Origin: Escherichia coli
GTDB taxonomy: Bacteria; Pseudomonadota; Gammaproteobacteria; Enterobacterales; Enterobacteriaceae
Direction: 5' to 3' (one strand)
Assembly: GCF_965641715.1 (NCBI RefSeq)
Contig: NZ_OZ282453.1
DNA: 64,000 bases
Both the position numbers and the translations under genes were made by a program. Positions 1-4,909 of this stretch are shown piece by piece (within the stretch, counting starts at the first letter, position 1; each line of letters opens with the position of its first letter). The notes under the pieces were generated by a model. That model was not told the origin of the DNA, did not search any database, and saw only the letters and a list, made by a program, of their open reading frames with translations.

Positions 1-1070
1 GCCCACTATTGGATCGTAAAGGCCCACGCCTGATGCTGGGACTGGGGATGTTCTTCTGGTCACTGTTCCAGGCCATGTCTGGCATGGTGCACAGCTTTAC
101 GCAGTTCGTGTTGGTGCGTATCGGTATGGGGATTGGTGAAGCGCCGATGAACCCATGCGGTGTAAAAGTCATTAACGACTGGTTCAACATCAAAGAGCGC
201 GGACGCCCGATGGGCTTCTTCAACGCAGCTTCTACCATTGGCGTTGCCGTAAGCCCACCGATTCTGGCGGCGATGATGCTGGTGATGGGCTGGCGCGGGA
301 TGTTTATTACCATTGGTGTACTGGGGATTTTTCTCGCCATCGGCTGGTATATGCTCTATCGCAACCGCGAGCACGTAGAACTGACTGCCGTTGAACAAGC
401 TTATCTCAATGCAGGTAGCGTCAATGCCCGCCGAGATCCGCTCAGTTTTGCCGAATGGCGCAGCCTGTTCCGTAACCGCACAATGTGGGGAATGATGCTC
501 GGATTCAGTGGCATCAACTACACTGCGTGGCTGTATCTGGCCTGGCTTCCTGGTTACCTGCAAACAGCCTATAACCTGGATTTAAAAAGCACAGGGTTGA
601 TGGCGGCTATCCCTTTCCTGTTTGGGGCTGCCGGGATGCTGGTCAACGGTTACGTTACTGACTGGCTGGTCAAAGGGGGAATGGCTCCGATTAAAAGCCG
701 TAAGATCTGCATTATTGCCGGGATGTTCTGTTCTGCCGCCTTTACGCTGATAGTACCACAAGCGACAACATCCATGATGGCGGTTCTGCTGATTGGCATG
801 GCACTGTTCTGTATTCACTTTGCCGGAACATCCTGCTGGGGCTTGATCCACGTCGCAGTTGCTTCTCGCATGACTGCGTCGGTGGGCAGTATCCAGAACT
901 TTGCCAGCTTCATCTGCGCCTCTTTCGCGCCGATCATTACTGGTTTTATTGTTGATACAACCCACTCATTCCGTCTGGCACTAATCATTTGCGGTTGCGT
1001 CACCGCAGCGGGAGCACTGGCGTACATCTTCCTGGTTCGTCAGCCGATCAACGACCCGCGTAAAGATTAA
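1..1070 (+). CDS. lgoT: MFS transporter, 3' portion (gene starts upstream of window); probable L-galactonate transporter
   Basis: ORF 9..1070 has typical MFS hydrophobic repeats and runs open from the window edge; lies convergent with tsr as yjjL/lgoT does in K-12 (identity from synteny and memory). Confidence 0.6.
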   Translation, partial: PLLDRKGPRLMLGLGMFFWSLFQAMSGMVHSFTQFVLVRIGMGIGEAPMNPCGVKVINDWFNIKERGRPMGFFNAASTIGVAVSPPILAAMMLVMGWRGMFITIGVLGIFLAIGWYMLYRNREHVELTAVEQAYLNAGSVNARRDPLSFAEWRSLFRNRTMWGMMLGFSGINYTAWLYLAWLPGYLQTAYNLDLKSTGLMAAIPFLFGAAGMLVNGYVTDWLVKGGMAPIKSRKICIIAGMFCSAAFTLIVPQATTSMMAVLLIGMALFCIHFAGTSCWGLIHVAVASRMTASVGSIQNFASFICASFAPIITGFIVDTTHSFRLALIICGCVTAAGALAYIFLVRQPINDPRKD

Positions 1071-1077
1071 ACTCCCT

Positions 1078-1111
1078 ATGCCCGATAACATTTTGCTTAT
1101 CGGGCATTTTT
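1078..1111. terminator. Hairpin plus T-run between convergent lgoT and tsr
   Basis: Inverted repeat ATGCCCGATAA / TTATCGGGCAT followed by TTTT; coordinates approximate. Confidence 0.6.
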
Positions 1112-1118
1112 ATGGCGA

Positions 1119-2783
1119 TTAAAACGTTTCCCAGTTCTCCCCGCTATCTGCCACTGCCATTTTACGCGGCGTAGCTGGCGTCACGGTTTTTACCACAGCC
1201 GATGTTTCACGCTGCTGTTGCTGCTGTTGCTGAATCCGGAACACTGCCACAGCTTCGGTCAGGCGACTGGCCTGCTCTTCCAGCGCGGCGGCGGCAGCGG
1301 CAGATTCTTCCACCAGCGCGGCGTTCTGTTGAGTTACCCGGTCCATCTCAGCAACCGCTAAGCCAACCTGATCGATACCACGGCTCTGCTCATCAGAAGC
1401 AGAAGCAATTTCGCCCATAATGTCCGTCACGCGGGTCACAGCACTGACAATCTCCGCCATTGTTTCCCCGGCGCTTTCGACCAGCGTAGAGCCAACATCC
1501 ACTTTCCCCACCGAGTCTTCAATCAGGCTTTTAATTTCACGAGCCGCCTGGGCGCTACGCTGGGCCAGATTACGCACTTCACCCGCGACCACCGCAAAAC
1601 CGCGCCCTTGCTCACCCGCACGCGCAGCCTCAACCGCCGCGTTCAAAGCCAGAATATTGGTCTGGAAAGCAATGCCGTCAATTACGCTGATAATATCGGC
1701 GATTTTCTGCGAACTGGTGGAGATATCGCGCATAGTCTGCACCACGTTATCTACCACTTTGCCGCCGCGTTGCGCCGTTTCAGAAGCACTTAATGCCAGA
1801 TGGCTGGCCTGGCGCGCATTCTCGGCGTTCTGTTTCACCGTTGCGGTCAGTTGCTCCATGCTGGCTGCCGTCTCTTCCAGCGAAGCGGCCTGTTGCTCGG
1901 TGCGCGAAGAGAGATCGTTATTGCCGGTAGCGATTTCGCTGGCACCGCTATAGATGGCATTGGCCCCGTTGCGCACATCACCGACGGTACGCATCAGTTC
2001 TCCCTGCATATGGCGCAAACTCTCTGCCAGTTGCCCCATCTCATTAGAGCCATCCACCTCAATCGGTTTCACCAGATCGCCGCCTGCAATATGACGGATG
2101 CTGTCAATCAGGCGATTCATTGGCGCTACCAGCGAGGCTTTAATACCGAACCAGACGGCGAAGATGACCGCCAGTACCACGATCATCACGCCCACCAGAA
2201 TCCACATCGCCTGGCTGTAGGAGGCATTGTTATCGCTGACGGCGATATCATAGAGCCGATCGTTTTGCTCCATGTAAGCCACATACTGCTTCTCGAAACC
2301 GTCTTGATATCCCTGGGTCGGCTGATCAAAGAACTCGTTGATTTTGCCTGCACCTAACAGTTGGATCAGCTCCGCCAGCGCATTGTGATAAATATCGTAA
2401 TTACGTTTGATCTCTGCCGCTGCGGCGGTGCTCTGACGCGGGTCACGCGGCAACGCTTCGTAATCCGCCCAGTTTTTTTCCGCCTGTTTCAACGAAATAC
2501 TGGCACTCTGCATCAGCTCAGCAACGGTTGAACCGCTACCAATATTATTCTGATCCATCATGTAGCGGATACCCGCGCGGTTGAGGGTGTTACGCGTCTG
2601 CAACAACGCGACCCAGCTGCCATTCAGCGTGGATTGCTGCTGGCGAATGGTTTGTAAAACAGTGAAATTTTCTTTGTCATTCTTTAAGGCATTAAAGAAC
2701 AGACCGCCTGATGTCAGTTGTAAAAGGCCAAAAACGGCCAAAACCAGCAGTAAGCTGGTCACGATCTTGATACGTTTTAACAT
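1119..2783 (-). CDS. tsr: Methyl-accepting chemotaxis protein I (serine chemoreceptor)
   Basis: 554-aa ORF with HAMP and MCP signalling domain, Q/E methylation regions and C-terminal NWETF pentapeptide. Confidence 0.95.
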
Positions 2784-2812
2784 GGTTTCTCTTTCCTGTG
2801 GACCGATGCAAG

Positions 2813-2840
2813 ATTTTCGGCCTGGAAAGCAAAAACTTTA
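2813..2840 (-). promoter_or_regulatory. Sigma-28 (FliA) class III promoter for tsr
   Basis: Minus strand reads TAAAGTTT - 11 nt - GCCGAAAAT, matching the sigma-28 consensus TAAAGTTT-N11-GCCGATAA, about 30 nt upstream of the tsr ATG. Confidence 0.7.
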
Positions 2841-2901
2841 TGAAAAGGTGTAACCCGCCATCCATGGAAAAACCAGGCGCTGGTTATCAGATACTAAAAA
2901 G

Positions 2902-3348
2902 TTATTCATTATCGCCCGGGATGTCTTCTTGTCGGGAATTGCCCAGAGCAATAAATTCCTCTAACAGATGGGTTAACTGTTGCATTTTCTCGGCAGTAAA
3001 CTGAGCTTCAATCTGCCGATAGGCTTCTTCAATCTGTGTCTGAGCGCGGTTATACAGCGCCTGCCCCTCTTTGGTCAGCGAGATATAGAGCTTCCGCTGA
3101 TCATTGATCGGCTTTAATCGCAACACTAGACCGTCGCGTTCCATCCGCGTGAGGATCCCGGTCAGGCTTGGGCGCAAAATGCAGGCGCGATACGCCAGAT
3201 CGTGAAAATCCATTGATGGGCTTTCCGCCAGAATACGCACGATGCGCCACTGTTGCTCAGTCAAATTATGCCGTTTAACGATTGGGCGAAAATAACTCAT
3301 CGCCGCTTCTCGCGCCTGGAGCAACGCAATGGTTAGTGAGTCGTGCAT
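2902..3348 (-). CDS. hpaR: MarR-family repressor of the homoprotocatechuate pathway
   Basis: ORF 2902..3429; likely start at internal Met (MHDSLTIALLQ...) giving about 148 aa; MarR-like wHTH; divergent from hpaG. Confidence 0.85.
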   Translation of the reverse strand: MHDSLTIALLQAREAAMSYFRPIVKRHNLTEQQWRIVRILAESPSMDFHDLAYRACILRPSLTGILTRMERDGLVLRLKPINDQRKLYISLTKEGQALYNRAQTQIEEAYRQIEAQFTAEKMQQLTHLLEEFIALGNSRQEDIPGDNE

Positions 3349-3570
3349 TATCTTTCCCCTGAAAAATTCAAAATCATTAATATAGAAACAGTTAATCGTC
3401 ACGTTACCGGGACTGCGCTGTCCCTGCAATTCCTGATTTTATCAAAATTGATGATATTTTATTAACTTACTGATATTTAATATTTTATTATCTTTAAATG
3501 TAAATAGTTTGTTAATTAGATCACATTTACATCACTTACTTTTGCCAAACTACGCAATCGGGAATAAAAG

Positions 3571-3594
3571 TAATCATTAACATATTAATGATTA
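3571..3594. promoter_or_regulatory. Perfect 10-bp-arm palindrome in the hpaR-hpaG divergent promoter region; candidate HpaR operator
   Basis: TAATCATTAA-cata-TTAATGATTA, 26-49 bp upstream of the hpaG ATG inside an AT-rich spacer. Confidence 0.5.
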
Positions 3595-3619
3595 AGATGA
3601 TCGAATCCGAGGAGTGGTA

Positions 3620-4909
3620 ATGAAAGGCACTATCTTCGCCGTAGCGTTGAACCATCGCAGCCAGCTTGATGCATGGCAGGACGCGTTCCAGCAATCCCCC
3701 TACAAAGCCCCGCCTAAAACTGCGGTCTGGTTTATTAAACCGCGCAATACGGTGATTGGTTGCGGTGAACCGATTCCCTTTCCACAGAGTGAAAAGGTAC
3801 TGAGCGGTGCGACAGTTGCGCTGATTGTGGGAAAAACGGCGACGAAAGTACGTGAAGAAGATGCGGCAGAGTACATCGCCGGATATGCGCTGGCTAACGA
3901 CGTCAGCCTGCCGGAAGAGAGCTTTTACCGTCCGGCAATCAAAGCAAAATGTCGTGATGGATTCTGCCCCATTGGCGAAACCGTGGCTCTCAGCAATGTC
4001 GATAATCTGACTATCTATACCGAGATCAACGGGCGTCCTGCCGATCACTGGAATACCGCCGATTTACAACGTAACGCCGCACAGCTGCTGAGCGCCCTGA
4101 GCGAATTTGCCACGCTGAATCCAGGCGATGCTATTCTGCTCGGCACGCCACAGGCGCGCGTGGAAATACAGCCAGGCGATCGCGTGCGTGTTCTCGCAGA
4201 AGGTTTCCCGCCGCTGGAAAATCCGGTAGTGGACGAACGTGAAGTGACCACGCGCAAGAGCTTCCCAACGCAGCCACACCCGCACGGCACGCTGTTTGCC
4301 CTCGGCCTGAACTACGCCGACCACGCCAGCGAACTGGAATTTAAGCCACCGGAAGAACCGCTGGTGTTCCTGAAAGCGCCGAATACCCTCACTGGCGATA
4401 ACCAGACCTCCGTGCGCCCGAACAATATTGAATACATGCACTACGAAGCGGAGCTGGTGGTGGTGATTGGCAAGCAGGCGCGTAACGTCAGCGAAGCCGA
4501 TGCCATGGATTATGTCGCGGGCTACACCGTGTGTAACGACTACGCCATTCGCGACTATCTGGAAAACTACTACCGCCCTAACCTGCGGGTAAAAAGCCGC
4601 GACGGACTGACGCCGATGCTTTCAACCATCGTGCCGAAAGAGGCGATCCCGGACCCGCATAATCTGACCCTTCGCACCTTCGTCAACGGCGAGTTACGCC
4701 AGCAAGGCACCACCGCCGATCTGATCTTCAGCGTGCCCTTCCTGATCGCCTACTTAAGCGAATTTATGACCCTGAATCCGGGCGACATGATCGCCACCGG
4801 CACACCAAAAGGCTTATCTGACGTGGTGCCTGGCGATGAAGTAGTGGTGGAAGTAGAAGGCGTGGGCCGCTTGGTGAACCGAATTGTGAGTGAGGATACA
4901 GCGAAATGA
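3620..4909 (+). CDS. hpaG: Bifunctional OPET decarboxylase / HHDD isomerase (FAH family, duplicated domain)
   Basis: 429-aa product; GGAG SD 5 nt upstream of ATG 3620; stop overlaps hpaE start (ATGA). Confidence 0.9.
   Translation: MKGTIFAVALNHRSQLDAWQDAFQQSPYKAPPKTAVWFIKPRNTVIGCGEPIPFPQSEKVLSGATVALIVGKTATKVREEDAAEYIAGYALANDVSLPEESFYRPAIKAKCRDGFCPIGETVALSNVDNLTIYTEINGRPADHWNTADLQRNAAQLLSALSEFATLNPGDAILLGTPQARVEIQPGDRVRVLAEGFPPLENPVVDEREVTTRKSFPTQPHPHGTLFALGLNYADHASELEFKPPEEPLVFLKAPNTLTGDNQTSVRPNNIEYMHYEAELVVVIGKQARNVSEADAMDYVAGYTVCNDYAIRDYLENYYRPNLRVKSRDGLTPMLSTIVPKEAIPDPHNLTLRTFVNGELRQQGTTADLIFSVPFLIAYLSEFMTLNPGDMIATGTPKGLSDVVPGDEVVVEVEGVGRLVNRIVSEDTAK

Follow-up and report, generated by a model that had tools for sequence, protein, structure and literature searches.

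An in-frame 9-bp tandem repeat of variable copy number at the base of the C-terminal tether of the Escherichia coli serine chemoreceptor Tsr

The serine chemoreceptor gene tsr of Escherichia coli contains an in-frame variable-number tandem repeat, in which a leading CAG is followed by one to four perfect copies of the 9-bp unit CAACAGCAG. Our preferred reading, to which we give a probability of roughly 0.8, is that these copies are gained and lost by strand misalignment or unequal exchange and that the variation is probably nearly neutral. In the stretch of E. coli DNA analysed here (64,000 nucleotides; hereafter the window), the tract spans 1212..1232 on the minus strand, consists of CAG plus two units (direct reading of the sequence; Tandem Repeats Finder) and encodes the glutamines Q518-Q524. 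A run of seven consecutive glutamines in the tsr open reading frame had already been pointed out by the first-pass annotation, within positions 1195-1235, and it is present as described.

The tsr coding sequence lies at 1119..2783 on the minus strand (554 aa plus stop) and was identified from the list of open reading frames, Pfam, identity to the K-12 protein and RefSeq annotation. Pfam recovered TarH (residues 1-176, E 9e-55), HAMP (217-263) and MCPsignal (327-484, E 2e-62), all above the curated cut-offs and in the order TarH, HAMP, MCPsignal, as for a Tsr-type methyl-accepting chemotaxis protein. The translation ends in the pentapeptide NWETF (1122..1136, minus strand), which is conserved in 80 orthologues and is preceded by a linker that is not; in Tsr this pentapeptide is the docking site of CheR and CheB (PMC10561060, PMC4692393). 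Of the 5,426 complete E. coli genomes in RefSeq, 5,382 have the matching gene annotated as tsr. The gene lgoT is found downstream of tsr in the window as it is in K-12, and the same locus together with near-identity of the proteins supports orthology, whereas the upstream neighbours differ (btsT in K-12; hpaR and the hpa cluster in the window). Within the window, tsr is the first complete gene on the minus strand.

The codons of Q518-Q524 are CAG CAA CAG CAG CAA CAG CAG (plus-strand coordinates 1232..1212), and the tract sits between the flanks TTCCGGATT and CGTGAA. It comprises a leading CAG (1230..1232, minus strand), a partial repeat copy evident in the sequence and found in all aligned alleles; a first copy of CAACAGCAG (QQQ; 1221..1229, minus strand), evident from the sequence, Tandem Repeats Finder and the allele alignment; and a second copy (QQQ; 1212..1220, minus strand), one such unit being missing in K-12, where the gap is exactly 9 bp. 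The best-scoring solution of Tandem Repeats Finder has a period of 9, with 2.4 copies and 100% matches (1211..1232), and we therefore read the tract as CAG plus two perfect copies of CAACAGCAG. Both this program and the codon display give head-to-tail copies of one unit, the arrangement by which a coding tandem repeat is recognised. Perfect period-9 tracts of at least 22 bp have an expectation of 0.003 per shuffled window; the window holds two, the second of which, near 38.65 kb, belongs to an unrelated repeat protein. Apart from Q7, the long six-frame open reading frames of the window contain no homopolymeric amino-acid run that reaches seven residues.

A tract whose codons are only CAG and CAA may also be read as a classical trinucleotide microsatellite, in which the glutamine run would change by one codon per step, and Tandem Repeats Finder does return a period-3 solution as well. 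This solution reaches only 78% matches, however, against 100% for period 9, and no more than two CAG codons stand in a row, which is not enough for 3-bp slippage to be efficient. The alleles described below also bear on this reading, which we regard as very improbable.

The K-12 allele, taken from strain J53 (WP_000919536.1), has a tsr of 1,656 bp encoding 551 aa, and its tract reads CAG CAA CAG CAG, that is, four glutamines and a single copy of CAACAGCAG; W3110 is identical to J53 across the repeat stretch. The two proteins share the gene, its position, the TarH-HAMP-MCPsignal architecture and the NWETF end, and they are identical at 547 of 554 residues (99%), with a single gap of three residues that falls inside the glutamine run. 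K-12 Tsr accordingly reads IQQQQRETS, with one 9-bp unit where the window has two, and beyond the gap the proteins differ by four substitutions (window to K-12: Q92E, Y178H, T538A and G547E). The first-pass annotation had set the 554 aa of the window against 551 aa for K-12 and had assigned the difference to the glutamine run, and the alignment bears out both points. The residues are "extra" relative to K-12, as it had put it, but not as a general statement, since 554 aa is the length of the allele carried by about 76% of E. coli and corresponds to the modal tail length of Tsr in other Enterobacteriaceae.

Aligned at the codon level, the E. coli sequences fall into four alleles, all with perfect copies of the unit and conserved flanks, and all separated by whole units. 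One unit (4Q; 551 aa, CDS 1656 bp) is found in K-12, MS20653, W224N, SH21PTE31 and JNEC-KY174; two units (7Q; 554 aa, CDS 1665 bp) in the window, M3, O157:H7 and E. coli C; three units (10Q; 557 aa, CDS 1674 bp) in LF82, NRG 857C, HS, MP1, MEI3O-23 and EC6622; and four units (13Q; 560 aa, CDS 1683 bp) in RM14723, A13 and Z1323HEC0355. The Tsr forms of 551, 554, 557 and 560 aa are separate RefSeq protein accessions. Counting glutamine codons against K-12 and other alleles, as had been proposed when the run was first noticed, with equal counts as the outcome that would speak against a polymorphism, thus gives four different numbers: 4, 7, 10 and 13.

The frequencies of these alleles were obtained by BLAST with queries built such that one 9-bp gap moves a match into another identity band, so that the counts are identity-band inferences from five differently designed queries and not explicit genotypes. 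Run against the complete genomes of E. coli in RefSeq, the 7Q query matched 4,056 records with an identity of at least 95%, 1,323 at 90-95% and three at 80-90%, and the K-12 4Q query matched 1,214, 4,055 and 73 records in the same bands. With the 13Q query there were three exact matches and 72 records at 90-95%, nearly all of the matches listed in that band being of 10Q length. Among the 5,382 genomes with tsr, we estimate about 4,095 with 7Q (76%), 1,214 with 4Q (22.6%), 70 with 10Q (1.3%) and three with 13Q, in a sample that is non-random and in which laboratory derivatives of K-12 raise the 4Q count. Some 39-40 records that stood at 90-95% to the 7Q query and were not seeded by the K-12 query are placed in 7Q only indirectly, by their absence from the 4Q band of one of the synthetic queries described below, and a search with the haplotype of strain 98232 did not identify them. 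K-12 carries a minority short allele, and the 554-aa form of the window is the majority allele of E. coli (about 76%).

Synthetic 8Q and 6Q queries found no match at 99% or more in 5,381 genomes, the best being 7Q alleles at 97% with a 3-bp gap, and all 352 matches listed with coordinates differ in length from the repeat of the query by multiples of 9 bp only. Among the matches listed for the 13Q query, no 16Q allele ranked above those of 10Q length. The 80-90% band of the 7Q query, where a 1Q allele would fall, holds three records, which equals the number of 13Q genomes, and Z1323HEC0355 is the one 13Q genome among the matches listed there. Repeat assemblies of one strain agree with each other (LF82, two; HS, two; 8178, three; and many K-12 derivatives). 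Steps of 9 bp only and concordant assemblies together indicate that the variation is real and moves by whole units, not by single codons. Sequencing or assembly error in low-complexity sequence does occasionally affect short repeats, yet here the differences are exact multiples of 9 bp between perfect copies, the same allele recurs in independent assemblies of one strain and in up to thousands of genomes, and a tract of 21-39 bp is far shorter than any read, so that the chance of an artefact is negligible. Slippage by single codons is rejected on the same data: all observed alleles (4Q, 7Q, 10Q, 13Q) are 9 bp apart, with CAA kept at every third codon, and neither a 6Q nor an 8Q allele turned up in the genomes searched.

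We reconstructed a tree from the full tsr of 21 E. coli strains, a sample deliberately enriched in rare alleles, on which Fitch parsimony counts 10 changes of copy number (bootstrap 7-11; minimum possible 3). When about 400 nt around the repeat are compared, at least three right-flank haplotypes carry 4Q, and at least three carry 10Q. Near-identical flanks carry different lengths: a single change among about 400 flanking sites separates MS20653 and W224N (4Q) from 98232 (7Q), MEI3O-23 (10Q) is likewise one flanking site away from the 13Q group, and the right flank of HS and S51 (10Q) is the right flank of K-12 (4Q). The scatter of alleles over the tree and the near-identical flanks with different lengths argue that the copy number has changed repeatedly. 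Such recurrence is what would be expected if units were repeatedly gained and lost in place, as replication slippage would produce. The gene is also mosaic, in that M3 matches HS to the left of the repeat and the window to the right of it, and recombination within tsr means that part of the apparent recurrence could reflect transfer of whole alleles and not new mutation. Within the 21-strain sample, copy number was always the same wherever the 170-nt flanks were identical, so that the locus shows no hypermutability over short periods.

The most likely cause of the change in copy number would be misalignment of strands during replication, or unequal exchange between the repeats. A tract of at least two copies would offer 12 bp or more of identity in a register shifted by 9 bp, a classic substrate for slippage; the leading CAG and the last CAG of each unit would together provide the 12-bp overlap that permits a 9-bp misalignment. 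In the one-copy allele only a 3-bp overlap (CAG...CAG) would be left. From this difference in overlap, 4Q should arise easily by contraction but re-expand only with difficulty or rarely, and easy contraction would fit with 4Q having arisen independently within 7Q backgrounds. The slipped-strand length polymorphism suggested by the first-pass annotation is therefore retained in part: strains do differ in the way that slippage produces, but the unit is not the CAG/CAA codon that it had implied, it is the 9-bp CAACAGCAG. As the unit comprises three codons, the frame is always kept and the repeat cannot act as an on/off switch of phase variation. A phase-variable contingency locus was considered separately and ruled out, the 9-bp unit lying inside the coding sequence and all four alleles being full-length to NWETF.

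At the level of the product, the only outcome of a change in copy number would be the length of the tether between I517 and NWETF. The non-conserved C-terminal tether comprises residues 518-549 (1137..1232, minus strand), as delimited by conservation, the confidence of an AlphaFold2 model and the literature. In the 80 orthologues, conservation ends with the nearly invariant R516 and I517, and beyond these the only conserved positions are R540, K541 and those of the pentapeptide (W551, E552 and F554 invariant; N550 and T553 nearly so). Published work agrees with this boundary: residue 517 has been described as the last conserved residue of Tsr, followed by a 34-residue C-terminus (PMC4692393), and the tether of K-12 Tsr as a flexible chain of 30 residues that starts from I517 and begins IQQQQRETS (PMC10561060). 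Because conservation ends at I517, the tether begins with the glutamine run, which lies at the base of the chain that keeps CheR and CheB close to the sites of methylation. An earlier placement of the run in the C-terminal tether before NWETF is thereby upheld, with the refinement that the run is not in the middle of the tether, it directly follows I517. Measured from I517 to NWETF, the tether has 30, 33, 36 and 39 residues in 4Q, 7Q, 10Q and 13Q.

The run could instead extend the C-terminal signalling helix, in which case copy number would move the anchor of the tether (by about 0.45 nm per unit) or make the bundle more or less stable at its membrane-proximal end near HAMP. In an AlphaFold2 monomer model built from the 80-sequence alignment, which is of low quality (mean pLDDT 63.7, pTM 0.35), DSSP assigns a helix to residues 434-526, straight through the glutamine run, and the run abuts the conserved hydrophobic helix end AVAVFRI. 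If this helix to residue 526 is real, added glutamines may not act as a flexible chain. Experimental evidence for disorder of the tether comes only from Tar, by way of the papers cited here. Against a helical extension, pLDDT is below 50 for residues 518-554 in the same poor monomer model, the N-terminal arm has no partner helix beyond this point, and in the published accounts conserved structure ends and an unstructured tether begins at residue 517 (PMC10561060, PMC4692393). We therefore consider a role of the run as part of the helix unlikely.

What a change in tether length might do can be judged from Tar, in which tethers of 22, 29, 34 and 46 residues have been engineered; the peak of the CheR distribution moves by 0.128 nm per residue, and adaptation precision and methylation kinetics were altered (PMC10561060). 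If this value applies to Tsr, the reach of tethered CheR and CheB along the receptor would shift by about 0.38 nm per unit. Neighbouring receptors in mixed arrays supply tethers in trans (PMC4692393), so that a small effect on reach is likely to be buffered. The functional effect of copy number is probably small and the length variation probably nearly neutral.

Selection could, on the other hand, have made a "tuning knob" of the repeat, with tether length setting the reach of CheR and CheB and the speed and precision of adaptation to serine, and with different lineages or niches favouring different copy numbers. The altered methylation kinetics of the engineered Tar variants, the repeated change in copy number, and the occurrence of 10Q in several gut-adapted strains (e.g., LF82, NRG 857C, HS and MP1) would fit such a role, as would the strong conservation of tail length, though not of tail sequence, in 79 orthologues. 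A step of three residues predicts, however, a shift of only about 0.38 nm in a peak that lies at about 10 nm, the tethers in trans should buffer it, hosts and sources overlap broadly among 4Q, 7Q and 10Q strains, and the allele frequencies are consistent with mutation, drift and clonal sampling. Selection of this kind seems unlikely to us. The stronger claim, that the repeat acts as an evolvable dial for tether length, whose settings of 30, 33, 36 and 39 residues measurably change the reach of CheR and CheB and the speed and precision of serine adaptation, with lineages sorted by selection, we hold to be similarly unlikely; if it were true, almost all quantitative work on chemotaxis would have been done with an atypical short form, that of K-12. 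Near-neutrality remains our preferred reading, and the tight conservation of tail length, which hints at selection on length, sits uneasily with it.

To place the repeat in a wider context, we scanned species-representative genomes and obtained 80 Tsr loci from about twenty enterobacterial genera, a set without E. albertii, E. fergusonii and the E. coli species representative, in which the nearest outgroups are two Escherichia genomes with Tsr identities of 94-95%. At the position of the glutamine run, Tsr of other genera reads FRIQQEQQRAR(D/E) or variants of it, all imperfect, and the two closest Escherichia outgroups read FRIQQ(T/A)QQRQHE; none of the 79 orthologues has a glutamine run longer than three. 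On this comparison, both the uninterrupted run of glutamines and the perfect repetition of the 9-bp unit are specific to E. coli. The tail after F515 measures 36-41 residues in the 79 orthologues, with a mode of 39 (47 of 79) that equals the length in the 7Q allele, and in this set its length is tightly kept while its sequence is barely conserved. K-12, with 551 aa, stands at the short edge of this range, and the forms of 557 and 560 aa lie beyond it. The sequence of the closest outgroup (L008) aligns to 7Q alleles without a gap (best match 84.7%). An ancestral-type, imperfect allele within E. coli was sought with the same sequence, and no near match to it was found in the RefSeq complete genomes.

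The agreement in tail length between the outgroups and 7Q shows that the 554-aa length is old and typical. The perfect two-copy state could have come about either by substitutions in an old QQxQQ motif or by a deletion followed by a duplication; that the synonymous CAA recurs at exactly the same place in each copy speaks for a step of duplication or homogenisation. The tsr gene presents a case in which an old imperfect QQxQQ motif was turned into a perfect, slippage-prone repeat in a single species.

K-12 Tsr is the basis of nearly all quantitative models of chemotaxis, and its tether lacks three residues relative both to the form found in about three quarters of sequenced E. coli and to the length that is usual in related genera. 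The natural alleles with tethers of 30, 33, 36 and 39 residues offer a ready series for testing the tethered-enzyme model of adaptation, and the repeat could be used as a minor marker in typing. In practical terms its significance is modest, and the understanding of chemoreceptors is unchanged by the repeat. A full-text search of the literature found no account of the tsr repeat, of natural variation in Tsr tether length or of tsr as a typing locus, and the tsr repeat is thus apparently an undescribed instance of a well-known feature, the in-frame coding tandem-repeat polymorphism.

In-frame short-unit VNTRs are used in MLVA typing of E. coli and Salmonella, and the likeness is drawn here to this class as a whole and not to a specific locus. 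Like them, the tsr repeat consists of perfect head-to-tail copies of a unit divisible by three, keeps the reading frame and has changed recurrently; it differs from them in its few copies (1-4) and its apparently modest mutability. Eukaryotic CAG/CAA polyglutamine tracts share with tsr the codons, the product and the interruption of CAG runs by CAA. These tracts expand mainly through 3-bp slippage in long pure CAG stretches, whereas in tsr CAA recurs strictly every 9 bp and gains and losses involve the 9-bp unit as a whole. A further comparison is with the engineered Tar series (Yue et al. 2023, PMC10561060, where earlier work on the Tar tether by Li & Hazelbauer 2006 and Bartelli & Hazelbauer 2011 is cited), which likewise varies the chain between the signalling helix and NWETF, over 22-46 residues compared with 30-39 in natural Tsr. 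The Tar variants were made in the laboratory by adding or deleting residues beside the pentapeptide, whereas the variation in Tsr is natural, lies next to the helix, consists entirely of glutamine and proceeds in steps of three residues.

The C-terminal tail of Tsr, the serine chemoreceptor, is highly variable in sequence across about 20 enterobacterial genera (loci L007-L086), while its length is tightly constrained, with 36-41 residues following F515, a residue near the end of the conserved C-terminal helix, and exactly 39 in 47 of 79 cases. This suggests that selection acts on the length of the tether and not on its sequence. Besides the Q run, tsr contains a second low-complexity stretch, AAAAAA, encoded by GCC, GCT and GCG codons on the minus strand (1285-1303; TRF period 6, 3.2 copies), which, unlike the Q run, hardly varies in length from one orthologue to another, nearly all having the same number of residues.

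Where the C-terminal helix ends in an Ala-rich segment, the minus strand carries two 11-bp direct repeats, CGCCGCGCTGG, at 1280-1290 and 1313-1323, with a spacing of 33 bp. Both copies are intact in the tsr of the window. In strain 3PT, from mink (locus L002, 136-1767), exactly the 33 bp between the two copies are deleted, and its Tsr comprises 543 aa, 11 residues being missing through this deletion.

In strain M3 (L003), compared with the window and with loci L090 and L091, the left flank of tsr carries the haplotype of HS and S51 and the right flank that of the window, which points to a recombination breakpoint no more than a few hundred bases away from the 9-bp repeat. The neighbours of tsr also vary among strains (window 1-4900; loci L001, L003, L004 and L093): lgoT lies downstream in the window, K-12, O157:H7 and HS, and a gene for a TRAP transporter permease in LF82, MS20653 and 3PT; upstream, hpaR and the hpa cluster are found in the window and M3, and btsT in K-12. 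In the 48-bp gap between the convergent lgoT and tsr, the arms GCCCGATAA...TTATCGGGC form an inverted repeat with a T run after it (1079-1110); read by eye, this looks like a putative bidirectional terminator common to both genes. A search of complete E. coli genomes for the 3' end of tsr returned no match in 44 of 5,426; three matches belong to records that are labelled as plasmid sequence, and two copies were present in a single genome.

A further length-variable coding repeat, besides tsr, is probably present in the plus-strand ORF at 37154-39406, which encodes a pentapeptide-repeat protein of 750 aa (Pfam PF00805, E 3e-33) and contains two internal tandem arrays, one of 9.8 copies of a 24-bp unit specifying STDKQANN-like 8-residue repeats (39079-39313), the other of 9/18-bp units with PKIPGT-like repeats (38650-38752).
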